Origin: Candidatus Brockarchaeota archaeon
Lineage (GTDB): Archaea; Thermoproteota; EX4484-205; JAAOZP01
DNA: 64,000 nt
Direction: 5' to 3'
Assembly: GCA_017601225.1 (NCBI GenBank)
Contig: JAFNIX010000011.1
Span: 1,121 to 65,120, forward strand
The notes beneath the pieces are model-generated. The model had not been told where the DNA came from. It was given only the letters and a program-made list of their open reading frames with translations, and made no database searches. Positions 3,777-50,658 of this stretch are shown here, in pieces (within the stretch, counting starts at the first letter, position 1; every line of letters begins with the position of its first letter). The translations under genes and the position numbers were made by a program.

Positions 3777-4734
3777 GTGATAAGAAGACTGAGGCTGTGG
3801 AACTTCAGGGGAGTGAGGAGGGGTGAGGCTAGGCTTGAACCCTTCATGATTATTCTAGGTGGCAATAACTCGGGTAAAACTACTATTCTTGAAGCACTGT
3901 TCCTGGCCCCAAACCCTTTCCGGAGTTCCTTGTTCTGGAGTCGACGTGGCTGTTAAGGTTCTCCACGAGCAGCACAGGATTTTTTGAAAGCAAGGGTTAT
4001 TTTTCCTTTTCCAAAATTATACTTCTAGTGAGGCCAAAATCCAGTGTGACAGCTACGTAATAAGCTTCCTTAGAGATGATGAAACGGTATATGTCACTAC
4101 GAGCAAGAGCGATGCCGGCCAATGCGTCATGCTTAAGGGGAAGCCTGCTCAAGTTTTAGGGAAACTACCTTTCCCGCTCACCAGCATAGTCTTCATGTAT
4201 ACGAATGATAAGGTTACTAGGGAAGACTCTCTGCTTCTCACCCCAAGCCTGGCTAGAATTAGCTACGATTACTTGAGGATAAACTGGCCTCTGCTTGCTC
4301 ACAGCAATGTTTGCAACAAGATTGCTGAAGAACTGTCTCGACTCACCGGTGAGAAATGCGTTGACATAAACATGGAACCATTCTTCAAAGGAGGAGTATC
4401 GCTAAACCTTCTCCTGAAGGAGGAAAAGAGGATAAGGCTCACAGACACTGGAACAGGAGTCCAGAACTATATTGCAGCAAGGTTCCTGTGCGAGTTGAAG
4501 AAGCTGGAGATACTGCTCTGGGACGATGTTGATAACGGCCTCAAACCAGCTAAGCTTTCAAGCATCGCAGGCTGGTTCTCCAGCCTTGTAGAAAAGGGCA
4601 CTCAGGTCATCGCAACCACTCGGAGCCCGGAGGCTGCGAGAAGGATTACAGAAGCCGCTGGAGGCAGGCCTATAATACTTCTAAGCGTTCTTAAGGAAAA
4701 CACGCTTAAGACTGCTTCCGGCGGAACTAGATGA
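3777..4734 (+). pseudogene. disrupted P-loop ATPase (AAA_21 / SMC-like ABC-type ATPase family)
   Basis: From GTG 3777 the frame reads MIRRLRLWNFRGVRRGEARLEPFMIILGGNNSGKTTILEALFLAPNPFR (Walker A), then hits TAA at 3954-3956. The protein continues in another frame (…VDVAVKVLHEQHRIF, stop at 3985, then …SYVISFLRDDETVYVTTSKS…). That frame runs into ORF 4129..4734, which carries a Walker-B-like ILLWDDVDNGLKP. At least one frameshift and one in-frame stop are present. Confidence 0.6.
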
Positions 4735-8258: not shown

Positions 8259-9958
8259 CTAGGTTGAACATATGTAAGTATCTTTCTTAGAAACCTTGTT
8301 TTCTCAAGAGAATCCCGAATGTTAAGAATTATGCTGAGCATCGGGGATACGATTCCGGGTGAAACAGACGTTGTTTTCCCACTCACCATTCTGCCGCCGA
8401 CAATACTGTTAAACAGGAGGTCGAACTTGCCCTCAATCTCCTCCCCAGTGGAGGAAACCACTGTGGCAGAGAAATCGGCCATCATCTCCTGAATCTTCAG
8501 GATTCTTTCAAGAATCGGGGTTAATGCTTTTCTCGTCTTGCCAACAACGTACTTCCACTCCGCCAGATTATTGGTTAAGACTGTTGTCTGAAGCAGGGTT
8601 GGTTTCTTTCTTCTAAGCTCCTGCAGCAATTTCTCAGCTTCAACAGTTTCGCTGATCGAGCTTAGAATAATGTCTTCCTCCTCCAGGATGCTGCTTAATG
8701 CTCGTTTAAGCATGATCAGCCGCATCGCCCTATCTGGAAGCCGGGCAGCATAGAGCCAGGGTACGACGCTCTCCATCTGGTCAACAACCTTACCTGCTGA
8801 GTCTCGAATAAGCTTCAGCATCCTGCAGGATTCAGAAGCTTCCCTAAGGGTCTCCTGATCCACAGCCTCTGCGGAAGGCATGCTGGCCTTCTCCCCACCC
8901 GAGTAGGCTTTCAGTAGCACAGCATTCCCAAGCAAGCCATGCGTGAAAGGAGTTTTAAGGCTCTCAACGTGTGAGAAGAACAGAACGATTTTTCCAGATC
9001 CGTGTTCAGTAAACCCGATGCTGCTGGCGCCTCCTATTGTTTTAAGCGCCTCCTCGCATGGCACACCATACTCCACACTAGTTAGAGGCTCCACTATTTT
9101 TGCGAAAACCTGTTTAGCGCTAGCGATTTTAGCAATCGGGCCAGTGTGAAACATCGTAAGCTCACCTCCATAGCCTAGTGTCAACAGTCCTCTTTTCATA
9201 ATCCTCGCCTTGACGAGGCCTGTTACAGGGTAAGTCCTTAAAACCCCGCTTAACCGTCTTCCTGAGAAAACAGGCCAAGAAGGCTCTGAAACAGTGTCAC
9301 TCAAAAGTTTACACTCAACAACCTGCAGCTCGCTCCACGCCTCTATCTCCCCGTACGCGGATATTGGCACGTTGACTGGTTTAAGTGGAAGAAGTGCGCC
9401 GGCGCATATCCCAATATACACGCCCCCAGACTCTACGAATTGCCTGATCATCCTGGCCTCCTCTTTCGCGAGCGACCTGAGAATTTCAAAACTGTCTCCG
9501 CCGCCAACTATCAAGACGTCTAGCGCACGCAAGTCTTCAAGCGTCAACGGCCCTGGGAGAAGAGATATTCTTCTGAAACCCATTTTAAGCAAAGTATCCA
9601 CTGTTTCCTTCAAGTATGATACTGAAACCCCGTTCCCACTGTACAATCCTATGAGCGGGCTGCGCAACCAGGCAACACTCTGCTGATCAATGGTTTTCAA
9701 AGGCTTCAACTCTACACCGTACTCTTCGCTGAGATTCTTCGCCAAGTATTCCGAATAGACTTCTTCAACACCGATCACGAAGTCCCCGGGCTTAAGGCCT
9801 GCTTCTCTAGCATCCCTAGGTTTCACAACCCTGCCAATTTTAAACCCTGATTCGAGAAGATTATTTACAAGCCTATACGCGTTAGAATAGGCTTCCCCAC
9901 CGCCTTTCTTAAACCGTGTACTCCACCACTTCAACGTTCTCAGAGAAGCATCAGCCAC
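8255..9958 (-). CDS. protein with a class-I glutamine-amidotransferase-like (BPL_N/DJ-1-like) domain and a helical C-terminal half; function unknown
   Basis: LDVLIVGGGDSFEILRSLAKEEARMIRQFVESGGVYIGICAGALLPL resembles the GATase1-like nucleophile-elbow region. It sits 25 nt downstream of the GH3 gene on the same strand. Confidence 0.5.
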   Translation of the reverse strand: MADASLRTLKWWSTRFKKGGGEAYSNAYRLVNNLLESGFKIGRVVKPRDAREAGLKPGDFVIGVEEVYSEYLAKNLSEEYGVELKPLKTIDQQSVAWLRSPLIGLYSGNGVSVSYLKETVDTLLKMGFRRISLLPGPLTLEDLRALDVLIVGGGDSFEILRSLAKEEARMIRQFVESGGVYIGICAGALLPLKPVNVPISAYGEIEAWSELQVVECKLLSDTVSEPSWPVFSGRRLSGVLRTYPVTGLVKARIMKRGLLTLGYGGELTMFHTGPIAKIASAKQVFAKIVEPLTSVEYGVPCEEALKTIGGASSIGFTEHGSGKIVLFFSHVESLKTPFTHGLLGNAVLLKAYSGGEKASMPSAEAVDQETLREASESCRMLKLIRDSAGKVVDQMESVVPWLYAARLPDRAMRLIMLKRALSSILEEEDIILSSISETVEAEKLLQELRRKKPTLLQTTVLTNNLAEWKYVVGKTRKALTPILERILKIQEMMADFSATVVSSTGEEIEGKFDLLFNSIVGGRMVSGKTTSVSPGIVSPMLSIILNIRDSLEKTRFLRKILTYVQPS

Positions 9959-38086: not shown

Positions 38087-40015
38087 TTAAAACGGAAGTA
38101 TCCACCCTACTTTGGAGAGAAGCACTATGCCTATTACTAGGCCAACGAGTATGCCTTCTCCTGTTGCAATGCCTGCTGCCACAACTGTTTTGTATTTTTC
38201 CCACCACTCTCTTCCAAGAAATCGGGGCATCACGTATCTTCCGATTAGTGCGGCTAGAAACATAGGAACCGTGAATGCTGGAAGTGTTGACATGCCTGTA
38301 GCAATACCCATTAAGCTAAATGGTATTGAAGCTATCTTGGTTAAGATCGAACCCACTACACCTAAGCCTACGGCTAGGGAGAAGAAGAACAAGAGAACAG
38401 GCAAGTTTAAGGTAAAGACCTGTCTAGTAGCCCACATAAGCTGGTTTATCGCTTGAACAGGCCATGAGATAAGCGTGTTTGGATATGCTGAGGAGGGGAT
38501 TGGAGCGATCATCCAGAACACGCTGGCATATATTACACCAAATATAGTGTAAAGTATAAATGCTATAACGAAGGCTTTTAAGAAATCAATCGGTTTCGTT
38601 TCAGTCAAATAAGCTACTTTAATGTTCTGAACCCATGTTGGAGTTGAGCTTCCACCTATTACTGGACTGAAAAACCAGGCGTCGATTTTCGGGTAGCCGG
38701 AGAGCATTATAGTGAAAGCCCATGCATAAGGTATACTTACCGCGTAACCTGTTTCACCAACTGCCCTGGTGCCTATTATAGCGTTCAGAAATGAGACGCC
38801 AAGTGAAACCGCAAGTGCAGGAAGTATGGGGAATTCCGGTATGAAATAATTGAAGAGTAGGACTGAGGCAGTAATTGAGGCAAAGTAGAGAGACAGAAGA
38901 ACTTTTAGAGAAGGATAGCCAGCAGCCTTACTCTGGGCTGAGAGCCTCCATAGGGAGCGAATGCCCTTCACCACCACTTTCCAATTCTGTGCTAACGCTA
39001 ATATGGAAATGGCTAGCATGAACCCGATCTGCGGTATAAGCCAGACCCTAAGCATAGACCTTTGCCAAACCAGACTCAGACTCATCCCGAAGGTCCATTC
39101 CTCCTTCCATAATGGAAAATAGCTGCTGAAAAACGAGAGTGCAAGATTGTTCCCAATTATCCACACTAAAATTGAGCTTGCGAACATATAGACCACTGTG
39201 TTAAACGGGATTAGGAAGCCGCCTATCCAGACTAGGGGATCTGTCGCGATGCCAAGTGCAGCACCGGGAAGAAGCCGCTCTATGCCTAGCAATCCGGTTG
39301 TCAGATCCCACCAGGGTACGGGAATGACCTGTATGTTCGTACCCCAAAGTCCAAGGCTCAGAGTATTAATCCCATACAGGAAAAACGAATAAAAAGCCCC
39401 AATCGCTGCAGAGATAATGAAGACTTCCATCTTATCAGAAGGCCTATCAGTAAGTGTATTTATCATCTGGGCGGATATATCTGCAAATGGAAAAGGTAGT
39501 TTCTCCGTCTCTAAAAATAGTTGGGCACAGATTATGGTTAACGAGATTTCCGCAATGATAAATAGAATGCCAAATTGCAAAGTTGAGAGAAACATTGGAA
39601 GAAGCCACGTGCTTGAGAGTAGAGTCCTGCTGAATTCTATCTCTTTCCAATATGGGACGTAGAAAGTAGGTATGACCTCTGGAAGCGGCAGCTTGGTAAA
39701 GGGATCTATGAATGACCATCCAACAGGTCCCGTTACCAAGTAGTGACGGTATATGAAGTCTGTCATGGGTGTTGATGCAGCGACACCTATCATTATGAAC
39801 ATGATGAAAAGTTCCTGCTTAGATAGGCGTATATTCATTAAGGAACCTACTTCTAGAAAAAGGATTACAACTATGTAACTGAAGGCTCCGGCTATTGCAG
39901 CCCCCGAAACCAGACTCAAATATATCGAAACAGGCAGGAGAACTATTGAAGCAAAGAAAAGAGCTAATATTACTCTCCAGGTTATTCCAGGTTTAAACTC
40001 TATGGTCTGGCCCAT
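38087..40015 (-). CDS. polytopic membrane protein, distant paralog of the 669-aa pair; OPT-superfamily-like permease (tentative)
   Basis: 642 aa with more than 14 hydrophobic segments. It shares RLSKQELFIMF, ETEKLPFPFADISAQMIN and LLPGAALGIATDP with the 669-aa proteins. The EKLPFP… motif and the C-terminal GIATGEGILVGLV recall OPT transporters (LPFPSGxAtA, AGLIAGEsL). Its start lies 1 nt after the upstream stop. Confidence 0.6.
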   Translation of the reverse strand: MGQTIEFKPGITWRVILALFFASIVLLPVSIYLSLVSGAAIAGAFSYIVVILFLEVGSLMNIRLSKQELFIMFIMIGVAASTPMTDFIYRHYLVTGPVGWSFIDPFTKLPLPEVIPTFYVPYWKEIEFSRTLLSSTWLLPMFLSTLQFGILFIIAEISLTIICAQLFLETEKLPFPFADISAQMINTLTDRPSDKMEVFIISAAIGAFYSFFLYGINTLSLGLWGTNIQVIPVPWWDLTTGLLGIERLLPGAALGIATDPLVWIGGFLIPFNTVVYMFASSILVWIIGNNLALSFFSSYFPLWKEEWTFGMSLSLVWQRSMLRVWLIPQIGFMLAISILALAQNWKVVVKGIRSLWRLSAQSKAAGYPSLKVLLSLYFASITASVLLFNYFIPEFPILPALAVSLGVSFLNAIIGTRAVGETGYAVSIPYAWAFTIMLSGYPKIDAWFFSPVIGGSSTPTWVQNIKVAYLTETKPIDFLKAFVIAFILYTIFGVIYASVFWMIAPIPSSAYPNTLISWPVQAINQLMWATRQVFTLNLPVLLFFFSLAVGLGVVGSILTKIASIPFSLMGIATGMSTLPAFTVPMFLAALIGRYVMPRFLGREWWEKYKTVVAAGIATGEGILVGLVIGIVLLSKVGWILPF

Positions 40016-40016
40016 T

Positions 40017-43000
40017 CTACCTCATACCCCCTTTATCCACCAACTCTATATATTTATTTTTCTCACTATCCGAGATCATCTTCCAGGTCAACAATTGCTT
40101 CCTGACGGCATCTATAAAACCATAGTTTAAAGCCACCCAGGTGTCCGGAGTACCCTCTATCCTTTCAAGCCTAAGCAGGAAGTCATATTTCCTCGTATCC
40201 TCGTAAAACTTAGAGTTTATTAAGGCCCTCTGATATACTCCTGAATCGAGAGGCATAAGGGAAACAAGAAGTTCCTGAGTTTTTCCTTTAAGATCTGTTT
40301 TAATACTTCTGACTATAAACGGGTCAGGGGTTTCGGAAGTATGTGCCTTGAAGAACTCCTCTAAGAATAAGTAAACCGCTTCAACCTCTTTTTCCTCCGT
40401 CAGTGAGAATGGTAATGGGATATCCCATATGTTGCCCTTCGGCTTCGTAGGAATCTTCCATTTTCTTTCAAGCGAGGGCGTAATTAGTTTCGAGGCCATT
40501 CGAATAGGATAAAACATCGCCAATAAGGTTGAGAGAATGCCTGCAAAGATTGCTAGGGCTATAGAAAGCGAGGTGGCGTTTAGAGAAAAGCTTTCCGGCA
40601 GTAATTTGCCGGCGATTAAAAGCGAATTAGCCACTACTCCTAGGAAGTAGGCGGGAACGACGGACAAGATCGAGTATGCTACAGCCTCTATTATTAACAT
40701 TATTGCAGAACCGGATGGGGGAAGGCCGACAGCACTATATACGAAGAGATCGCCTCTCCTCTCCTTTACTGAACCCAATACCGCTACCGAAATGGATGCC
40801 GCTCCTATCACTATCAAGGGCAGGGCGAAGGAGAGGCCTGAGGGGGTGAAGGAAACTATTGGACTGTAATATTTTGCTCCCTCTTGAGAGGAAACGTAAA
40901 TCGGAATACTATATACATTAGCTATTCTTTCTGCAAGAGTTGCAGCATCATCATAGCTTTTCGTCACTATGGAGACGCTTGCCAAATACCCACCCATGTC
41001 CTTTACTAATTCATGAGGCAATATCAGCATCATGCTCCATGGCGTAGGTGCATACTGCGGTTCCTGAACAGTTCCAAGAACTATAGATGGAAGAATAGGG
41101 TATAAGGGAGTATCGATGTATCCGTCAAAGTTAACAAAGCTGTTCAAAGTAGAGGAATTTACGATCCCCACTACTTTAAGATTTAAACCTTCAAAAACGA
41201 TCGTGTCGCCAACCTTAACCGATAGATCTTTAGCGATGTTAAGAGGAAGGATCGCGGAATAATAGTCTTCGGAGTTGAACCATCTCCCTTCAATTAAGGC
41301 TTTCGAATAATCGTAAACTTGGTATTCTTCAGGAGTTAACCCTATAACGGCTTTGATGGTAGTAGAGGAGATGTTTGTTTTTATGAAGGTATAGACGTCT
41401 CTACCTTCGATTGATTCAGGATACCACCAGAACCTCGGAGCAACGATTACCGTCAAATCGGCAAATCGCTCCTGCTTTAATATGTTAATCAAATCATAGT
41501 CGAATGCACCAGCAGGTTGCTGCCGAATATTCGTCTTTATACAAATTCCTATATAGTTGACTTTCCCTTCAGGAATAGTCGACGGCATGGGCGCTTGGAA
41601 AATCGAAACAGAGGTGAGCGATACAAACGCAAAAACCACGGAAGCTATCGAAAGCATAACTAAGGAAGTTCTCAGCTTGCGTCTTTTCATATGCTCTATA
41701 GTATATGGGAAAATTACTAATGTAAATGAAGTTAGGCTTCTTTCCGCGAAGTGAGCACCAAGCGCCTTTCTTCTTATCGTTTTCAAAGTATTTAGGGCTT
41801 CAGAAGAGAATAGGAAGGTTACAATCACGAAGAAAACTACTACAATTACGCTGAGAGGAGCCATGATGAAATTAGCTGCTAGTTTAAATATTGGATTTAC
41901 GTAGTATAAAAGAAGCATCATCACTATGAAAATGATTCCTGAAGATGCTGCCACTATTTTCCCTTGGGCTCTTATGAAGACGGCGGGCGCTAGGAATGAG
42001 AATAACGCTAGTATGATTATTAAGAATATAGAAGTCGTCGGGATATCATTTATTAAACCCATAACTCCTCCATAGGTTCTAACCACAATAGAATTTAAAG
42101 AAACTGCTGATTGAAGCATCGTCAAATAGTCAAGGGTTCTTAAAGAATCGGAAAGGAGACCCCTGTAGAATAAAGCGTTATTTAAAGAATCTTGGATTAA
42201 AGGGTTCCATATGTTTAATTCGCGTAACCCAGAATATCTGTTCACCGAAGTAGTGTAAATATTTAGCGCGGACTCGAGCAAGGCGTTTATATGAATTTCC
42301 TCATTGTCCTTCGAACAGTAGCCAGAAAAATCATATGGTGGTATTAGGGCTGTCGAAGTGTTAGTTAACAGTACTTGGAGCACTCTCATAGACCCTATGG
42401 TCATGAAGCTCACGAAATACGTGTGGGGTTGGACGAAGGCAACTAGGATTTTATCATCAGGCTGGAGGAAAACCCCCCAGGATATGTCTGGGCCAAGAGA
42501 TTTAGCGTTAAGGAGTTGAACTGAAGGAATGGATTGGAGCCAAATGTTTGTAGGTACACGGGGATCCCTGAAGATTAGTGGTCTTAAGCCTTGGTAGTCG
42601 AATAAGTTGAAGAATACGACCGTGTTAGATCTGAACGCTATCGTGGTTACGTTATAGGGATCCGTGTTTAATTGATAGTAGTTTGGAAGGTATTGTGCAC
42701 CGTACTGCCCAAAGTCTGGTGCATACTCTATCAGACCGGTTTCCTCGTTCAACCTAAATGCTAAGAACGTATAGGCACCTTGACATGGTGCTAAACCGTA
42801 ACCCAACCCTCTTACTTCAAACCTCCCCTCAGAATCTGAAAAAACGTAAATTATTTGGAAAGGATAATTCGTATAACCTAGGCCTCCAGGAAATACTGCG
42901 ACCATAGCGTTTGGAAGAGGTGTGTACCATCCCTTGGTAACATTGAATGTTAACGTCCTGCCATAAACTGTGATAAACCCGGCTACATCTGTTGCCCCCG

Positions 43001-44519
43001 CTGCTATAAGGGTTCTACTCCTTCCTGTGACTGCTGGAGACACTTGGTCCCACCTGATTCCCCAGTCTATCGAATTGGAGAGCTCATGAATTATAGCTAG
43101 GCTTAAGTAAACCTGGGGCCAAAGATTATCATATTGAACATTCTGGCTCAGCGGCAGTCCCCAGAAGAAGTTTAAGGTTCTACCCGTCTTTATCGTGAAG
43201 CCTAATCCATGAGCCATGGATAATGGCTCAGAATCCAGAATATATGGGGTCACTTGAGACCCCCACCAAGCATTCATGGGGAAACCGTAGATTACCTCTA
43301 CGGGGCTTACTTCCCTGCTAAAAGCATTCACTATATCCATAAGCTTTGTCTGCAACCATCCAGTCCATCTTGCCTGAACGGTTGTACTCCCATACCTGTA
43401 GAAAAACCCTTGACTGAGAAAAGATATGCTCTTAGAGCTTGTCGAAAAATCCATGTTGATCTGCAGCCAAATCTTAGTGTGCCCCTCAACAACACTATTG
43501 TTATAGAAGAACTCGTCCACAAAGGCTCTGGAGCCTGCAAGCGCCTCATAGTGGCCGGAGAAAGCAACGAACCAAATTGTCCTTTTAGGTTTCTTATCCG
43601 AGAAAACTCGTGCAAATTCTAGTAAGGCTGAAATCGATGTCGCCTCGTCTTTCGAAGATGCTAATGCAGGAACGACTGACCATGTATCGAAGTGGGTTGA
43701 AACAACAATTACATCATTCGGGTAATCCGTACCTTCTAATATACCAATTATATTTTGGCCGACAACGTTTTTGAAGACCATATTATTTACGATGGTGGCT
43801 TCAATTTCACCATTATTCTCCTCAAGCAGGTTTAAAACGAATAAAGCGTCTTTTCTAGAAATGTAAAGCCTCGGCAAGTATACTGGAGTAAGCAGGAACT
43901 TCGACCTGGCTTCAGCATGATTGCTCTCCTCAGGCTCGATGAAGATAACTCCCTTTGCCCCGAATGCAGCAGCCTGAACCCAGTTGCCCCCACTATTAAA
44001 ATCCATCAGAACGATCGTCCCGTTTATAGGCTTACCTTTAAGGGCTTGATAACTCCCGTCTCTAACGTAGAGGAGTTTACCGGAAACTCCTTCTGGAGGA
44101 GTCTTACAGGTTTGAATAAGATTAGGCCATAGTGAGAAGACCTTTATCCTATAAGAGCGGTCCTTGGTTTTCAGAACGATGTAGTTATCACCGTCTATTG
44201 GACTTACCACAGTGTAATTCTGAACAATTACCTTTAACCCTAATTCTTTAAACCTATCAGCTATGTATCTTGAAGCCCTATAGAAATCAGGGTAACCGGT
44301 TACTCTCGAGCTTAGAGAGGAGAAGAATTCCAAATGTTCAACAAGCCTCGACTTATCAAAATTTGACAAAACTGTTTGGAAGTCTCCAACATCATCCGGC
44401 TGGGCTTTCACGCTGAAAAAGGCTCCCATGCTGGAGAGCAAAGCTACCCCTATTAAAACCAAGATGAATGGAGTGAAAAAGTGTCTCCAGCATTCTTGCA
44501 AATCTTTATCAAATCTCAT
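40017..44519 (-). CDS. giant membrane protein: N-terminal TM + PA domain + M28-like peptidase domain + large extracellular region + two FtsX/MacB-like permease modules + cytoplasmic tail
   Basis: M28-like motifs VVSTHFDTW…SSKDEATSISALLEFARVF…FVAFSGHYEALAGSRAF. The FtsX signature VKERRGDLFVYSAVGLPPSGSAIMLIIEAVAYSILSVVPAYFLG lies near the C-terminus, with an earlier TM cluster. The ATG at 44519 has GAGGTGA 10 nt upstream (the track's TTG is at 44525). Confidence 0.75.
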   Translation of the reverse strand: MRFDKDLQECWRHFFTPFILVLIGVALLSSMGAFFSVKAQPDDVGDFQTVLSNFDKSRLVEHLEFFSSLSSRVTGYPDFYRASRYIADRFKELGLKVIVQNYTVVSPIDGDNYIVLKTKDRSYRIKVFSLWPNLIQTCKTPPEGVSGKLLYVRDGSYQALKGKPINGTIVLMDFNSGGNWVQAAAFGAKGVIFIEPEESNHAEARSKFLLTPVYLPRLYISRKDALFVLNLLEENNGEIEATIVNNMVFKNVVGQNIIGILEGTDYPNDVIVVSTHFDTWSVVPALASSKDEATSISALLEFARVFSDKKPKRTIWFVAFSGHYEALAGSRAFVDEFFYNNSVVEGHTKIWLQINMDFSTSSKSISFLSQGFFYRYGSTTVQARWTGWLQTKLMDIVNAFSREVSPVEVIYGFPMNAWWGSQVTPYILDSEPLSMAHGLGFTIKTGRTLNFFWGLPLSQNVQYDNLWPQVYLSLAIIHELSNSIDWGIRWDQVSPAVTGRSRTLIAAGATDVAGFITVYGRTLTFNVTKGWYTPLPNAMVAVFPGGLGYTNYPFQIIYVFSDSEGRFEVRGLGYGLAPCQGAYTFLAFRLNEETGLIEYAPDFGQYGAQYLPNYYQLNTDPYNVTTIAFRSNTVVFFNLFDYQGLRPLIFRDPRVPTNIWLQSIPSVQLLNAKSLGPDISWGVFLQPDDKILVAFVQPHTYFVSFMTIGSMRVLQVLLTNTSTALIPPYDFSGYCSKDNEEIHINALLESALNIYTTSVNRYSGLRELNIWNPLIQDSLNNALFYRGLLSDSLRTLDYLTMLQSAVSLNSIVVRTYGGVMGLINDIPTTSIFLIIILALFSFLAPAVFIRAQGKIVAASSGIIFIVMMLLLYYVNPIFKLAANFIMAPLSVIVVVFFVIVTFLFSSEALNTLKTIRRKALGAHFAERSLTSFTLVIFPYTIEHMKRRKLRTSLVMLSIASVVFAFVSLTSVSIFQAPMPSTIPEGKVNYIGICIKTNIRQQPAGAFDYDLINILKQERFADLTVIVAPRFWWYPESIEGRDVYTFIKTNISSTTIKAVIGLTPEEYQVYDYSKALIEGRWFNSEDYYSAILPLNIAKDLSVKVGDTIVFEGLNLKVVGIVNSSTLNSFVNFDGYIDTPLYPILPSIVLGTVQEPQYAPTPWSMMLILPHELVKDMGGYLASVSIVTKSYDDAATLAERIANVYSIPIYVSSQEGAKYYSPIVSFTPSGLSFALPLIVIGAASISVAVLGSVKERRGDLFVYSAVGLPPSGSAIMLIIEAVAYSILSVVPAYFLGVVANSLLIAGKLLPESFSLNATSLSIALAIFAGILSTLLAMFYPIRMASKLITPSLERKWKIPTKPKGNIWDIPLPFSLTEEKEVEAVYLFLEEFFKAHTSETPDPFIVRSIKTDLKGKTQELLVSLMPLDSGVYQRALINSKFYEDTRKYDFLLRLERIEGTPDTWVALNYGFIDAVRKQLLTWKMISDSEKNKYIELVDKGGMR

Positions 44520-44592
44520 TAGCAATCTTCACCTCTTCTAACATCCTGCCCGTAACAATTTATGATAAAAAAGAGTTTTTAAGGTTTTCTGA

Positions 44593-46602
44593 TTAAAATC
44601 TTCCGAGCCATGATGGCAGCGATACATTGAAGAAAGTGATTAAAGCTCCGAATAATACTAGAACGCCGAAGCCTATACCAATCCCCATTGCTATCGGCAT
44701 CCATTTTTCCTCGAATACTCTTGAGCCGCCGAACTTGAGGACCGCATATTTTACGATGAAGGCTACGAGCCAAGCGGGCCAGAAGCCCTCAGGCAACATC
44801 ATTAGACCTACTGGATTTATGAAGAACCACCGGAACCTTGACCTAAGACTATAGCATGCGAAGACGAATATCGTGCCCACTATAGTATAGGTCCATGTCT
44901 CCGCGACGGTTACTGCTGGAGGCGTACCGTAAGTGTAATTGTAAATTGTCGGCAGCATCCAAGCATCGTATTGTATAGAGTTTATCCTTGAGTATCCTCC
45001 GAAGCTTGTCATGAACCATGGCCATATGAAGTAAGCAGCAACGGCAGTAACTACTATAGAGGTTAACGCAACATAGAGTATTTCTTTATAGCTTGTATTA
45101 GTCGCCTCGCCTATTTTGAAGGACATGAAGCCCCAGTGTATGTTCATAGGACTCATCCTGGAGCCAGCTAATCCTAGTGAGGTGTACATCAACATAGCAT
45201 TGAATGCGTCTGGAGATGGTCTTTGACCCCACTGGCCTAGGAAAGTACCTGTGTCGAAAACTATGCCGTGATAGGAGCCACCGTAGGGATAGAAGTGTTG
45301 CTCTCCCATTATTCTTATCCAAGCGAACATGATGAAGACATAGAATATTGGGATGAATACTGCCATCACTATTGGTGTTCCCGCTACGGCGAAGAGTATG
45401 ATTTGGATAAGTAGTGTTCCTATGGCGCCGAACGCCATAAGCCTATATGAAATACCACCCACATCTCCACCTTCCCCAGAAATACCTTTTCTAAGAACTT
45501 CCAAGATATACTTATAGTACTTGAAAACTACGTATAGGGCTATGCCTACGGAAACAAGAGCGTCAAACTGGGCCCACTTGAATACTCCGAGCGAGTACGG
45601 GTATTGAGTCTCGTTTCCAGCGCCTGGTGTGAACGGGTTTATTCCCAGTCTGACAGCAGCTGTTTGGAATAGAACTCCCCAGATAAACCACCAGAGGGTA
45701 GCTGTCGCCAACACGTCTAAAGGAATCAGTTGTCCTATGGAAAAAGCATCAATAACATAAAAGTTGCCGACGAGTAATGCTCCGGGCAATGGGCCAGATG
45801 TTATAGCCAAAAGGTCTACTGGCCAGTTGGCCAGCGCATTGCCTCCGAAGGCCAGTGGCCAGAAGTTTATAACCTGCCCAGGAATTGAAAGCAGCATTCC
45901 TATGATAAGCCCTATGTAGAAGAACTTTACGCTGCCAATTTTCAGGTTGAATAGGTTAGGCTTATCGTCACTTGTCGTGGTGAAATTGTTTATCATGAAG
46001 CTTACTGGCATGACCCAGGGAAACGGCAGTTTTTCTACCTCCATTAACGGCTTTATTAGCATAGTTCCCCAGAACCACAAGGTTGCGAATTCGACGATTG
46101 ACCAGACTATCCAGAAGAGGATTGGTACTAACCATGGGCCAATGTCGAAGGCACCGCCATACCAGAAAGCGTTCATAACAACAGGATCCTTAGGAACAAT
46201 GAAAGGCGGAACTTTCTCGTAGAAAACTGCTTTGTATGCTTCCGTGTTTAGACCTGTTGTTGCATGTGCGATGCTCCAATTTGTTATCGGCGTAGTAGTC
46301 CAGTAGCCTATTCCCTGTGCAGCATAGTAGCTGCCAGCAGTTATATAGCAGATTACGAAGAACAGTGTTAGCTCCTGTGAAGAAAGCCTGATCCTTCCAG
46401 AGAGTTTAGATAGCACATAGATTATCACAAGATTCCAGAAGAATGGCAACGGGAATATTAATGGATAGTTCCACCATGCTCCGAAGCCCTGCATCACCAG
46501 GTTTAGAAAGTATCCTACTGGAGGAATCAGTATTGCGGAAATTATGATCCATGTTTTCAGGCCAGAAGGCTTAACCCTTTCCTTTGGAGCTGTTTCCCCC
46601 AA
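44593..46602 (-). CDS. 669-aa polytopic membrane protein, paralog A (OPT-superfamily-like, tentative)
   Basis: More than 14 TM segments. Motifs MEVEKLPFPWVMPVSFMIN and NWPVDLLAITSGPLPGAL. The TTG start is supported by AGGTGAT (46608-46614) 5 nt upstream. It is first in the operon with the 1500-aa and 642-aa genes. Confidence 0.65.
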   Translation of the reverse strand: MGETAPKERVKPSGLKTWIIISAILIPPVGYFLNLVMQGFGAWWNYPLIFPLPFFWNLVIIYVLSKLSGRIRLSSQELTLFFVICYITAGSYYAAQGIGYWTTTPITNWSIAHATTGLNTEAYKAVFYEKVPPFIVPKDPVVMNAFWYGGAFDIGPWLVPILFWIVWSIVEFATLWFWGTMLIKPLMEVEKLPFPWVMPVSFMINNFTTTSDDKPNLFNLKIGSVKFFYIGLIIGMLLSIPGQVINFWPLAFGGNALANWPVDLLAITSGPLPGALLVGNFYVIDAFSIGQLIPLDVLATATLWWFIWGVLFQTAAVRLGINPFTPGAGNETQYPYSLGVFKWAQFDALVSVGIALYVVFKYYKYILEVLRKGISGEGGDVGGISYRLMAFGAIGTLLIQIILFAVAGTPIVMAVFIPIFYVFIMFAWIRIMGEQHFYPYGGSYHGIVFDTGTFLGQWGQRPSPDAFNAMLMYTSLGLAGSRMSPMNIHWGFMSFKIGEATNTSYKEILYVALTSIVVTAVAAYFIWPWFMTSFGGYSRINSIQYDAWMLPTIYNYTYGTPPAVTVAETWTYTIVGTIFVFACYSLRSRFRWFFINPVGLMMLPEGFWPAWLVAFIVKYAVLKFGGSRVFEEKWMPIAMGIGIGFGVLVLFGALITFFNVSLPSWLGRF

Positions 46603-47319: not shown

Positions 47320-48351
47320 TTAGGCTAGATGTTCGTCTGGGAAATCCTCCTCTAGAGGCAGTGAAACTGATTTCTTTCTTAGAATAGAGATGACCCCCGC
47401 TATCGCCAATTCTAATGCCTTTCTCCCATCTTCTCCCGACACAGGGACAGGGGTATCCCTTTTTACACATTCTTTGAAAGCTTCCAGTTCAAGAAAGTAC
47501 GGATCTTTGGTTTCCAAGATAATTCTTTTCCTTTTTACTGAACCTCCGGTTAAAAAGATATCGATTTGTTTAGGATTGTTACTACCTATCCGAATCAATC
47601 CCTTGGTACCGATAACCTCAAGGTTATAGGTGAAAGGATAACCTTCAGGCATTATCCAACTTCCTTCAACGTAAGCGCCAAGCGTATTTTTAAACAAGAT
47701 GAAGGCCCTAGTATGATCGTGAGAATAAGCCCTTCTTACTAAGGTTCCGCCTTGGGCATATATCTCTCTTGCGTTCCCAAAAGTCCATATGAAGAAGTCA
47801 AGATCATGAATACTAGTGTCTATGAAAACACCGCCTCCCTTGTGGGGATCATTATGCCAATCTTTCCATACGGAAAAATTATGGGCAATCAGTCGATTGG
47901 CTTTTGCAAAAACAGGCATTCCAATTTCACCATCCATTATTAAACTCTTGGCCATTATGTATTCCGCCCAGAATCTTAGAACATGAGCAACCATAAGTTT
48001 CCTCCCTGAATTCCTAGCCTTGTTGATCATGCTTTCAGCATCCTTAAGTTTTAAGGCTACTGGTTTTTCAACAATAACATTCTTCCCGTATTCTAGTGCA
48101 GTCTCCGCGATCTCTTTGTGCGTATATGTTGGGGTGCACACATCCACTATATCCACAGAGCTGTCTTTTAAAACTGGATCTAGGTGTTCGTAAAAATTTG
48201 GTATATGAAATTTTTCACTCATCTGCTTAGCCCTCTCCCTTTCCACATCTACGCATGCTAAAAGCTCTACACCGCTTATAGACTTCCAACGATCAATGTG
48301 AATCTGACCTATGTTTCCGCAACCGACAACAGCCGCTCCCAAACTATTCAT
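47320..48351 (-). CDS. Gfo/Idh/MocA-family oxidoreductase
   Basis: LGAAVVGCGNIGQIHIDRW Rossmann motif, VDIVDVCTPTYTHKEIAETALEYGKNVIVEKPVA. AT-rich coding sequence. Confidence 0.85.
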   Translation of the reverse strand: MNSLGAAVVGCGNIGQIHIDRWKSISGVELLACVDVERERAKQMSEKFHIPNFYEHLDPVLKDSSVDIVDVCTPTYTHKEIAETALEYGKNVIVEKPVALKLKDAESMINKARNSGRKLMVAHVLRFWAEYIMAKSLIMDGEIGMPVFAKANRLIAHNFSVWKDWHNDPHKGGGVFIDTSIHDLDFFIWTFGNAREIYAQGGTLVRRAYSHDHTRAFILFKNTLGAYVEGSWIMPEGYPFTYNLEVIGTKGLIRIGSNNPKQIDIFLTGGSVKRKRIILETKDPYFLELEAFKECVKRDTPVPVSGEDGRKALELAIAGVISILRKKSVSLPLEEDFPDEHLA

Positions 48352-48632: not shown

Positions 48633-48660
48633 GGTTAAAACCTAGTGGTTAAAACCTAGC
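48633..48660. repeat. tandem duplication of a 14-nt unit spanning the stop codon of paralog B (ggttaaaacctagt / ggttaaaacctagc)
   Basis: Read directly, 13/14 identical. The second unit contains the stop and the last 3 codons (…ARF*). Confidence 0.85.
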
Positions 48661-50658
48661 GAACCATGCTGGCAAAGCTGTTCCGAAGAAAGTTATCAAG
48701 GCGCCGAAGAGCACTAAGCCGCCGAAGCCTATGCAGGCTCCCGTTGCCATTGGCAGCCATCTTTCTTCAAAAACTCTTGCACCGCCGAACTTGAGAACCG
48801 CATACTTTATAACGAAGGCTACAAGCCAAGTTGGCCACCACCCGTTCGGGAGCATCAGCATTCCTATCGGGTTTATGAAGAACCAGGTGAATCTAGCTCT
48901 TAAGAAGTAGATCAGCGGTGTGACGACTATTCCGAGCAATGCATAGCCCCAAGTTTCTTCTACTGTGAGGGCTGGAGGAGTACCGTATGTCCAGTTGTAT
49001 ATTCCTGGGAGAGACCAGTCATTGTAGCTTATCGAGTTGATTCTAGAATATCCTCCGAAGCTCGTCATGAACCATGGCCATATGAAGTAGACCGCAACTA
49101 GCGTTGAAAGCAGCGAGATTATGGTGATGTAGAGAACTTCCTTTCCTGACGTGTTGGTCTCGTAAGCCATCTTGTAGGATTTGAATCCATGGTGCATCGC
49201 CATGGAGCTCATTCTTAACCCTGTGCCATAGCTGTAATACATCAGTATCGTGTTGAAAGCTGCTGGAGATGGTCTGGGGCCCCACTGGCCTAGGAAAGTG
49301 CCTGTGTCAAACACTAGGTATGAATAGGTGTCTACGCTTGGCATGAACTCCTCAACTTCACCCATCATCCTTGTCCATCCAAACATGTAGAAAATGAAGA
49401 ATAGCGGTATGAATATGGCCATGATTATCGGCGAACCTGTGACGGTGAACAGGATGACTTGAAGCAGGTATGTGCCTATGGCTCCCCAGGCTAGGAGTCT
49501 ATAGGAAACTCCATCGTCCTCAGCCTTTTCCCCCTTCAGACCCTTCTTGAAGATTTCCAAAATATGCTGCCTATACTTGACCACAACGGTAGCAGCCAGA
49601 CCTAGTGATAGACCTATCCAGGAAAACTGCATCCATTTAAATGGGCCCAGGTTCCAAGGATATGCAAACTCGTTACCTGCTCCCGGTGTGAATGGGGCTA
49701 GGCCGGTTCTAACAGCTAAAGTTTGATAGATTACACCGAAGACAAACCAGTAAAGAACTGCTGTGGCCAGTGCATCTAAAGGTATGAACTGTGCTACGAA
49801 CACGTCAGTGACATAAAGGTTGCCGGAAGTTAATGCTCCGGGCAATGGGCCAGATGTTATAGCCAAAAGGTCTACTGGCCAGTTTGTGAGGGCATTGCCT
49901 CCGAAGGCCAGTGGCCAGAAGTTTATCACCTGCCCCGGAATCGAGAGCAATGCTCCAATTATGAAGCCTATCCAGAAGAGCTTCGTCAACCTAAGTCTAA
50001 AGTTGAAGAGAATGGGAGTTCCCTCTTCTTCCTCCGTGTAGTATTTAACAAGATACGTGTGAGGCGCTATGCCTGGGAAAGGCAGTCTCTCAGTTTCGAC
50101 TAATGGCTTTCTAAGGAAATAACCCCATATTGCCATTCCAATGAATTGCCCTATTCCCCAGACTATCCAGAAGAGAATTGGAACCAGCCAAGGACCTAGG
50201 TTGAAGGTGCCGCCATACCAGAAGGCACGCATCACCACGGGATCCTTAGGGACAATGAAGGCAGGGACTTTCTCATAGAAGACACTTTGGTATGCTTCGT
50301 TATTTAATCCAGAGGTTGAGAAACCTATGTTCCAATGTGGAAGCGGAGTGGTGGTCCAATAGCCGAATCCGTATGCAGCATACATTCCACCTGCTGTTAT
50401 GAAGCATACCACGAAGAATAATGTGACCTCCTGTGGGGAAAGCTTAAAACTTTTAGACATTTTGGTTAGTAAGTAGAATATTACTATATGCCAGAAGAAT
50501 GGCAACGGGAATATTAATGGATAGTTCCACCATGCTCCGAAGCCCTGTATTATTAGGTTTAGAAAGTATCCTACTGGAGGAATCAGTATTGCGGAAATTA
50601 TGATCCATGTTTTCAGGCCAGAAGGCTTAACCCTTTCCTTTGGAGCTGTTTCCCCCAA
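48649..50658 (-). CDS. 669-aa polytopic membrane protein, paralog B (OPT-superfamily-like, tentative)
   Basis: Same length as paralog A with no indels (constant 4056-nt offset). The first 35 residues are identical and the remainder is clearly diverged. Motif VETERLPFPGIAPHTYLV. Confidence 0.65.
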   Translation of the reverse strand: MGETAPKERVKPSGLKTWIIISAILIPPVGYFLNLIIQGFGAWWNYPLIFPLPFFWHIVIFYLLTKMSKSFKLSPQEVTLFFVVCFITAGGMYAAYGFGYWTTTPLPHWNIGFSTSGLNNEAYQSVFYEKVPAFIVPKDPVVMRAFWYGGTFNLGPWLVPILFWIVWGIGQFIGMAIWGYFLRKPLVETERLPFPGIAPHTYLVKYYTEEEEGTPILFNFRLRLTKLFWIGFIIGALLSIPGQVINFWPLAFGGNALTNWPVDLLAITSGPLPGALTSGNLYVTDVFVAQFIPLDALATAVLYWFVFGVIYQTLAVRTGLAPFTPGAGNEFAYPWNLGPFKWMQFSWIGLSLGLAATVVVKYRQHILEIFKKGLKGEKAEDDGVSYRLLAWGAIGTYLLQVILFTVTGSPIIMAIFIPLFFIFYMFGWTRMMGEVEEFMPSVDTYSYLVFDTGTFLGQWGPRPSPAAFNTILMYYSYGTGLRMSSMAMHHGFKSYKMAYETNTSGKEVLYITIISLLSTLVAVYFIWPWFMTSFGGYSRINSISYNDWSLPGIYNWTYGTPPALTVEETWGYALLGIVVTPLIYFLRARFTWFFINPIGMLMLPNGWWPTWLVAFVIKYAVLKFGGARVFEERWLPMATGACIGFGGLVLFGALITFFGTALPAWFARF

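Follow-up and report, generated by a model that had tools for sequence, protein, structure and literature searches.

A giant MacB-type protein encoded between OPT-like permeases in a Candidatus Brockarchaeota genome, and its candidate unlinked ATPases

A gene for a 1500-residue protein, referred to below as the giant, was analysed within a 64,000-nucleotide stretch (the window) of contig JAFNIX010000011.1, positions 1,121 to 65,120, from the Candidatus Brockarchaeota assembly GCA_017601225.1. The protein joins a peptidase-like ectodomain to a permease module of the MacB type, and is encoded between genes for OPT-like permeases. The reading favoured from sequence comparison, with the chances put at even, is that the cassette specifies a modular type VII ABC (ATP-binding cassette) machine that works with OPT-like carriers and draws on a shared, unlinked ATPase module. 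In such a machine the giant would be an envelope protein with eight transmembrane (TM) helices and the central subunit among the products of the three cassette genes, the other two being paralogous and highly divergent OPT-superfamily permeases, and its MacB-type module would be driven by LolD-type ATPases encoded elsewhere. A 211-residue mini-FtsX protein and these ATPases would act as the shared energising module, possibly with the mini-FtsX as a heterodimer partner, and the outer domains, in movements driven by ATP, would trap oligomeric substrates for the OPT-like carriers or gate their entry, with a separate specificity for each cassette.

The MacB-type module and candidate ATPases

The two halves of the giant were modelled with AlphaFold2 on a 44-sequence family alignment, giving models of residues 36-830 (predicted local distance difference test score, pLDDT, 91.5; predicted template-modelling score 0.90) and 800-1502 (pLDDT 82.6), where residues are numbered throughout from an in-frame TTG codon at position 44525. 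Pfam matches to MacB_PCD (residues 954-1203, E 2e-9, 38.8 bits against a cut-off of 27) and FtsX (residues 1233-1346, E 8e-9, 36.1 bits against 25.5) were accompanied by Foldseek matches of the C-terminal half to MacB (5lil, E 1.4e-10) and to LolC/LolE, HrtB, YtrF and YbbP (E 1e-10 to 1e-5, probability 1.0), with the extracytoplasmic core domain matching the periplasmic region of E. coli MacB (5c59). The FtsX assignment made in an initial annotation of the sequence therefore holds on both profile and fold, and the FtsX signature that it had placed in the last TM cluster, ERRGDLFVYSAVGLPPSGSAIMLIIEAVAYSIL, lies at residues 1255-1287, within the Pfam match. However, the annotation's two FtsX/MacB-type modules reduce to one, in that Pfam detects a single FtsX stretch and a single MacB_PCD, and the first TM cluster (residues 829-922) has no Pfam match and, in the model, a four-residue cytoplasmic loop in place of a coupling helix; alignment of residues 819-927 with TM2-4 (residues 1227-1351) by hhalign gave a probability of 0.7%. 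The models predict a topology of eight TM helices, with the short N-terminus, the coupling helix and a C-terminal tail inside and both large domains outside.

The coupling helix is short and cytoplasmic, spans residues 1257-1265 between TM2 and TM3 in the model, and belongs to the most conserved class of region in the protein (3.0 bits), with E1255 and R1256 nearly invariant and G1267 and P1270 invariant. Its 12-mer DLFVYSAVGLPP ranks second in the giant, and the most conserved 12-residue window among all 1502 positions is TPSLERKWKIPT, which stands directly after TM4 at the start of the tail. In MacB, the major and minor coupling helices, after the TM2 and TM4 positions, contact the nucleotide-binding domain (NBD; PMC5985334); the two top-ranking 12-mers of the giant are thus found at the two positions where MacB contacts its NBD.

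As the initial annotation stated, no ABC ATPase is encoded near the giant: PF00005 (ABC_tran) has no match anywhere on the contig of 67 kb to which the window belongs, and a motif scan revealed no Walker-A motif in the 38-51 kb block. The accompanying statement that the only P-loop in the window is a pseudogene at 3.8 kb was correct as regards a remnant at 3858, but G-x4-GK[ST] also matches at 8395 and 55751, both chance hits. The remnant itself is a 59-residue open reading frame (ORF; window positions 3777-3956) containing GGNNSGKT.

ATPases linked to the cassette were found in other genomes. In the bacterial locus L006, seven same-strand genes separated by small gaps run in the order DUF6785-DUF6785-FtsX (488 residues)-ABC-giant-OPT-ABC, and at loci L001 and L007 a 262-residue LolD-type ATPase is encoded 0.8 kb upstream of the cassette. 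The genome under study, a metagenome-assembled genome of 2.3 Mb in 55 contigs, contains 16 FtsX modules, 13 of which are without an ATPase in cis, and only four LolD-type ATPases. When a maximum likelihood tree was constructed from the cassette-linked ATPases and all 40 single-domain ABC ATPases of this genome, the cassette-linked proteins formed a clade (support 100/99) with exactly two genomic ATPases, at C48:95910-96635 and C12:210310-211035, and the two conventional FtsX-paired ATPases of the genome fell outside it.

A search of the genome for an orphan MacB-type ATPase, as initially suggested, identified the C12 protein (241 residues; L004:7311-8036) as a true orphan with no adjacent permease. 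Its gene is flanked by a phosphoribosyltransferase/CGI-121 pair on one side and ABCE1-TIM on the other, directly upstream of ABCE1/RLI, and three further archaeal lineages (L099-L101) show the order thermosome, phosphoribosyltransferase, CGI-121, ATPase, ABCE1, TIM, the ATPase orthologs being 70-90% identical and far more conserved than the giants. The C48 ATPase is paired with the 211-residue mini-FtsX, encoded at C48:96651-97286 (the pair at C48:95910-97286; L005:3911-5287), beside an OB-fold gene, an arrangement seen again in L102. The mini-FtsX consists of four TM helices with scarcely any outer loop. No other protein of the genome matches the operonic 488-residue FtsX of L006 as well (78 bits), and the mini-FtsX family occurs widely across Thermoproteota (2442 hits at E<=1e-10). 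In addition, a solitary ATPase of the C48 type (81% identical) is located 2 kb upstream of the cassette at the Bathyarchaeia locus L054. With these counterparts, every component of the 'complete' bacterial operon is encoded in the genome, the ATPase and the small FtsX being unlinked from its eight cassettes. Taken together, the L006, L001 and L007 operons, the L054 arrangement, the unlinked ATPases of the same clade and the conservation of the NBD-contact positions favour ATPases that act in trans and are shared. The possibility, raised initially, that a cognate ATPase is encoded elsewhere is probably borne out in part by the two unlinked LolD-type ATPases, one of them an orphan.

Some other ATPases were set aside. 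The one beside cassette C42a (C42:30008-30796) is not of the LolD type (45.7 bits), is paired with a 12TM_1 permease and looks unrelated, and those near the giants of L063, L076 and L087 are conventional FtsX pairs or belong to another clade.

A number of observations weigh against a shared ATPase in trans. No LolD-type ATPase is encoded within 10 kb in about 75 of 79 loci retrieved with an 8-sequence query alignment from other archaeal genomes (Brockarchaeota, Bathyarchaeia, Thermofilaceae, Desulfurococcaceae, Calditenuaceae and others). Both candidate ATPases reside in conserved housekeeping contexts, and this synteny means that they may serve an unrelated core function. The conserved tail, being in cis and directly after TM4, could occupy the NBD docking site, and such docking could by itself explain the conservation of the coupling elements.

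The tail comprises 155 residues, close to the 160 or so first estimated, and is predicted to adopt an alpha/beta fold, for which weak Bet v1/SRPBCC-like Foldseek matches (E about 1e-2) were obtained and no relative was found in Pfam or among PDB sequences. Its signature is carried by 1032 representative clusters at 50% identity; it is C-terminal in all 150 hits listed, mostly in proteins of about 1450-1570 residues, the shorter ones probably being fragments, and among the 16 FtsX matches of the genome it is found in the eight giants only. The notion that the tail is a hidden NTPase was rejected, since Walker motifs are absent, the residues that never vary are P, S, R, W, E, G, L and Y, and the Pfam and PDB sequence searches gave no match.

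A less likely but serious alternative is that the giant is an ATPase-independent descendant of the MacB fold, which has lost its NBD, carries the C-terminal domain in the place of the NBD, and serves the OPT-like carriers as a receptor or gate that is either passive or coupled to the proton gradient. OPT transporters are secondary carriers. The family-restricted, invariably C-terminal tail among the hits listed, the position of the protein's most conserved motif at its opening right after TM4, the abutting or overlapping OPT-like gene in most loci, and the lack of an ATPase in cis from the window, the contig and some 95% of the archaeal loci sampled are all consistent with this explanation. 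Conversely, LolD-type genes have been kept within the operon (L006) or alongside it (L001, L007, L054), the canonical E-R..E-I/L..G signature of the coupling helix is retained and highly conserved, and the genome possesses matching ATPases without partners in cis, all of which argue against it.

The conserved cassette and its permeases

The initial description of the flanking permeases as OPT-like was supported by profile comparisons. The two upstream permeases, P0003 and P0004, are paralogs (phmmer ~997 bits) that match DUF6785 with 52.8 and 69.0 bits, and DUF6784 with 30.2 and 23.8 bits, respectively, the last value being just under the cut-off. The downstream permease, P0002, matches TIGR00728 well below its cut-off (E 6e-4, 18.6 bits against 128), and five of 12 members of its family match Pfam OPT (PF03169; best E 1.9e-10). 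Homology between the DUF6785 family and that of the downstream permease spans ~590 columns and, for permease A, its full length (hhalign probability 99.9%, E 1e-31), which, together with the OPT and TIGR00728 matches, suggests that both are very divergent families of the OPT superfamily. A sequence-profile search of the permeases against solved OPT/YSL structures gave no PDB match.

The cassette has the order DUF6785 permease, giant, OPT-like permease. Eight of the 16 FtsX matches in the genome are full-length paralogs of the giant, one of them split, and each of the eight is adjoined by a paralog of the 642-residue permease and by a DUF6785/DUF6784 permease. Close relatives of the genome carry the labels Candidatus Brockarchaeota, Bathyarchaeota or Thermoproteota. 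Among the other archaeal genomes, an OPT-like gene is present within 3 kb at 48 of the 54 loci with enough flanking sequence (47 by script and L067 by manual correction), and for 40 of 69 complete giants it is the next gene downstream in the same orientation, separated by -20 to +28 nt. The same trio is retained in bacterial relatives that share 22-25% identity. From this synteny, and from the abutting or overlapping genes, the giant and the OPT-like proteins almost certainly form a complex. Fusions of giant and permease were absent from the 79 archaeal loci, and nothing longer than ~1570 residues was seen among the top 150 tail hits.

The giant gene is a single uninterrupted ORF (40017..44525 on the minus strand, 1502 codons from the TTG). 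A database protein, P0007, is 100% identical and has 1500 residues, for which reason the ATG at 44519 is the probable start, in agreement with the coordinate and the length of about 1500 residues given for a single gene at the outset. The intergenic distances reported then were likewise confirmed, the upstream gap being 67 nt with the TTG as start and 73 nt with the ATG, and the downstream gap 1 nt. The upstream spacer (44526-44592) includes a T-run and, ~40 nt ahead of the ATG, a TATA-like TTTTTATCATAAAT; GGTGA stands 12 nt ahead of the same codon. Such signals suggest that transcription of the giant and the downstream permease may be separate from that of the upstream DUF6785 gene.

It is scarcely credible that the fusion is an artefact of assembly or gene calling that joined separate genes, a concern voiced at the outset. 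One paralog, at C33:5320-9566 (locus L012), is indeed split into ORFs of 1014 and 388 residues by a frameshift, a pseudogene or an assembly error. However, the full-length architecture is kept in 55 database proteins (P0007 and 54 others) from independent sources at 22-100% identity, and in the 69 complete copies across the 79 archaeal loci. The recurrence of both architecture and trio in archaea and bacteria indicates that the fusion is real, old and widespread.

Several cassettes of the genome are located at contig ends, which suggests that the paralogs break the assembly. A sub-family of giants with 1556-1592 residues (L033, L035, L038, L039, L042 and L043; Calditenuaceae, 'HR02' and related) lacks both OPT-like and DUF6785 genes to a distance of 10 kb, and its conserved neighbours are its own. 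The genome also encodes five more large FtsX proteins, of ~1000 or ~1800 residues (C15:10535-15928, C36:5238-10622, C7:24243-27557, C12:16949-19924 and C42:118485-121637), with no tail, no OPT-like neighbours and no ATPase in cis, and FtsX proteins of ~1000 residues adjoin cassettes at the archaeal loci L064, L069, L083, L088, L092 and L098.

Table 1. Features of the giant and neighbouring genes in window coordinates; M28 positions are given as residues of the giant, with counts over 44 aligned family relatives
Feature	Position	Strand	Basis or remarks
Giant gene	40017..44519	-	1500 residues from ATG at 44519; ORF list and translation
N-terminal hydrophobic helix, residues 17-39	44409..44477	-	Read from sequence; positive residues before helix
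PA and M28-like ectodomain, residues 41-505	43011..44405	-	Pfam, AlphaFold2, Foldseek, PDB profile search
His325-Tyr326	43548..43553	-	At M28 catalytic Glu and adjacent zinc-binding Glu; alignment to 2ek8, 2anp
Beta-rich extracellular domain, residues 506-745	42291..43010	-	AlphaFold2 secondary structure
Three-helix stalk into membrane, residues 746-828	42042..42290	-	AlphaFold2 models
Extra three-TM cluster, residues 829-922	41760..42041	-	AlphaFold2 helices; not FtsX-like
Cytoplasmic amphipathic helix and MacB-type TM1, residues 923-971	41613..41759	-	AlphaFold2; MacB_PCD starts at 954
MacB-type extracytoplasmic core domain, residues 972-1229	40839..41612	-	Pfam MacB_PCD; Foldseek
FtsX TM2, coupling helix, TM3, TM4, residues 1230-1347	40485..40838	-	Pfam FtsX; Foldseek
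Major coupling helix, residues 1256-1269	40719..40760	-	Second most conserved segment
Family-specific cytoplasmic tail, residues 1348-1502	40020..40484	-	Conservation; begins with TPSLERKWKIPT
Downstream permease P0002, 642 residues, divergent OPT-family member	38087..40015	-	Sub-cut-off TIGR00728; family matches Pfam OPT
Upstream permease A, 669 residues, DUF6785 and DUF6784	44593..46602	-	Pfam
GFO/IDH/MocA oxidoreductase, between the two DUF6785 genes	47320..48351	-	Pfam
Upstream permease B, 669 residues, DUF6785 and DUF6784, paralog of A	48649..50658	-	Pfam
M28 first zinc-binding His position	His278		His 25/44, Tyr 13/44
M28 Asp position	Asp280		Invariant
M28 Asp position	Asp293		Asp or Glu 34/44
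M28 catalytic Glu position	His325		His 37/44, Glu in none
M28 adjacent zinc-binding Glu position	Tyr326		Trp, Tyr, Ala, His or Phe, never Glu
M28 Asp position	Asp359		Asp 37/44
M28 last zinc-binding His position	Ser432		Ser, Gly, Ala or Thr, never His
M28 Glu position	Glu433		Glu 39/44

The ectodomain and possible substrates

The N-terminal hydrophobic helix (Table 1) is predicted to serve as a signal anchor or, alternatively, as a signal peptide that is cleaved between VKA and Q. The presence of PA and M28-like folds beyond it, proposed from the sequence at first reading, was upheld by a Pfam Peptidase_M28 match at residues 258-374 (E 3e-14, 53.5 bits), which covers the first 105 of 193 profile positions, by a PA match at residues 148-227 that is under the cut-off (E 1e-3, 19.4 bits against 23.9), and by Foldseek matches of the ectodomain to 2ek8 (E 4e-26), BSAP, GCPII and TfR (overall E 1e-26 to 1e-21), the best including PA-aminopeptidases of Aneurinibacillus and Bacillus. 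A PDB search with the family profile matched TfR and Nicalin. Pfam detects no TFR_dimer domain in the giant; a beta-rich domain follows the M28 fold instead, for which neither a Pfam nor a PDB sequence match was obtained. With the M28 fold extending to ~505, the ~700 residues of extracellular sequence originally left unassigned shrink to ~325, made up of the beta-rich domain and the stalk.

While the alpha/beta fold of M28 is present, the set of five zinc ligands (His, Asp, Glu, Asp, His) and the catalytic Glu is incomplete. Neither the Glu-Glu pair nor the last zinc-binding His was found in any of the 44 relatives, and the column counts (Table 1) indicate that the classical two-zinc site is missing across the family, although a remodelled single-metal or ligand site is possible. 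Public databases annotate relatives of the giant as 'M28 family peptidase', and an active M28 aminopeptidase, tethered to the membrane and supplying the OPT permeases with peptides from digested extracellular protein, could account for the M28 and PA folds, for partners in the OPT family, and for the retention by the giant (P0001) of H278, D293 and D359, which align with one M28 zinc site, and of the conserved His325. Moreover, Brockarchaeota are predicted to degrade protein (PMC8065059). Such an enzyme is nevertheless unlikely, given that the catalytic Glu, the adjacent zinc-binding Glu and the last zinc-binding His are present in none of the relatives and the first zinc-binding His is replaced with Tyr in 13; that no peptidase is among the 25 commonest cassette-neighbour families listed, in which sugar-related enzymes recur; and that TfR and Nicalin provide precedents for M28 folds without catalysis on membrane proteins. 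The initial proposal of a surface capture module that feeds the permeases remains viable, but capture is unlikely to equate to ordinary M28 proteolysis, as the canonical set is missing in all 44 relatives.

Clues to the substrate were sought among neighbouring genes. Those embedded in or beside the cassettes of the same genome include GFO/IDH/MocA (embedded in the cassette of the window), SDR epimerase (adjacent to that cassette), BNR_2 and DUF5107 genes, a GH10 gene embedded in the C53 cassette, GH42-like genes by the C7 and C16 cassettes, and genes for a CBM4_9 protein and two Asparaginase_2 proteins of the glycosylasparaginase type. The Asparaginase_2 genes are fragments at contig ends (L011:1-615 of C16 and L013:9568-10170 of C39), next to two different cassettes. 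Elsewhere, cassette neighbours include GHL10, GH130, AP_endonuc_2 and amidohydrolase genes, and among 125 immediate neighbours at 68 other archaeal loci GFO/IDH/MocA was the commonest family adjacent to or embedded in cassettes (8), with URO-D (5), FtsX (5), GH130 (3) and AP_endonuc_2 (3) also represented. Judged from these neighbours, glycan-derived oligomers are more likely than peptides to be the substrate. However, the carbohydrate signal is modest and heterogeneous, eight in 125 being a raw count, and the lineage is rich in carbohydrate-active enzymes anyway (PMC8065059), considerations to be added to those already raised against the favoured reading. URO-D genes recur near cassettes in this genome as well (six of 71 neighbours against five of 125 in other archaea; for example L009:14965-16020 and L012:2176-3270), as do creatininase-family and aldehyde:ferredoxin oxidoreductase genes.

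The characterised type VII ABC systems all work at the outer face of the membrane and not in import (PMC5985334, PMC12646458), and LolCDE and YbbAP are among the systems matched by Foldseek. These facts would suit a machine for envelope export or assembly, in which the type VII module extracts or presents a lipid-linked or surface component and the OPT-like proteins are flippases. This explanation is considered quite improbable: eight diverged cassettes scattered among catabolic genes fit substrate-specific uptake better, and neither glycosyltransferase nor S-layer genes recur beside cassettes among the 125 neighbours at 68 loci. Extending the shared-ATPase reading to uptake gives a rather doubtful, tentative proposal of a new modular ATP-driven importer, in which OPT-fold carriers would be combined with a MacB-type mechanotransducer bearing a TfR-like pseudo-peptidase receptor, and a single shared module, composed of the mini-FtsX and two LolD-type ATPases, would power at least eight cassettes located among glycan-degrading genes, making these an archaeal equivalent of polysaccharide-utilisation loci.

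Significance and comparison with known systems

The giant family is large, with at least 1032 clusters at 50% identity carrying the signature tail, and no description of it was found in the literature on DUF6785 or on the combination of FtsX with M28. Since its members are annotated as 'M28 family peptidase' and yet the catalytic set is missing in all those examined, the inclusion of giants may have raised the extracellular peptidase numbers given by surveys of Bathyarchaeia and Brockarchaeota. The points contributed here are the expansion to eight cassettes in an archaeal genome, the proposed identification of the mini-FtsX/ATPase pair and the orphan ATPase as counterparts of operonic components, and the ranking by conservation of the two putative NBD-contact positions. 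That a genome of 2.3 Mb contains eight cassettes implies that they play a large part in nutrient acquisition by these abundant, uncultured archaea of sediments and hot springs. Should a MacB-type module indeed operate with OPT carriers, no earlier type VII ABC system would have been linked to uptake, nor would there be a precedent for a primary/secondary transporter hybrid of this kind. No characterised type VII system is known to be paired in the genome with OPT-superfamily permeases.

The giant shares with MacB, LolC/LolE, HrtB and YbbP the succession of TM1, extracytoplasmic domain, TM2, coupling helix, TM3 and TM4, together with Pfam MacB_PCD and FtsX matches over cut-off, Foldseek similarity to MacB at E 1e-10 and the E-R..E-[IL]..G signature. 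It differs from them in having neither a fused nor an operonic ATPase in the window, and in its ~920 extra N-terminal residues, which comprise the anchor, the PA/M28-like and beta-rich domains, the stalk and three TM helices. Where MacB has a minor coupling helix alone, the giant has its 155-residue family-specific tail, and whereas YbbP and BceB possess a second FtsX module, the giant has one. The TfR-like pseudo-peptidase ectodomain, the three extra TM helices and tail, and the pairing with OPT proteins set it apart from MacAB-TolC, LolCDE, FtsEX, YbbAP, HrtBA and BceAB.

The ectodomain resembles TfR, GCPII and Nicalin in having a PA-containing M28 fold placed after an N-terminal membrane anchor, and TfR and Nicalin also in an incomplete catalytic set. 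Unlike these three proteins, the giant is prokaryotic, has no detected TFR_dimer domain and continues into a beta-rich domain and a polytopic ABC-type module. The permeases can be likened to the OPT/YSL proteins (PF03169, TIGR00728) through the five of 12 members of the downstream family that match PF03169 and the homology of DUF6785 over ~590 columns, but the copies in the window score below all curated cut-offs and are encoded together with a MacB-type giant. In group II ECF transporters and with the multitask ATPases (MsiK and MsmX type) that serve sugar ABC importers, energising modules are shared by many dispersed specificity components. The analogy with these systems would lie in genomic logic alone, eight dispersed cassettes being set against one or two unlinked and highly conserved ATPase genes; the fold of the giant is type VII as opposed to ECF or type I, and the sharing of ATPases is in its case inferred.

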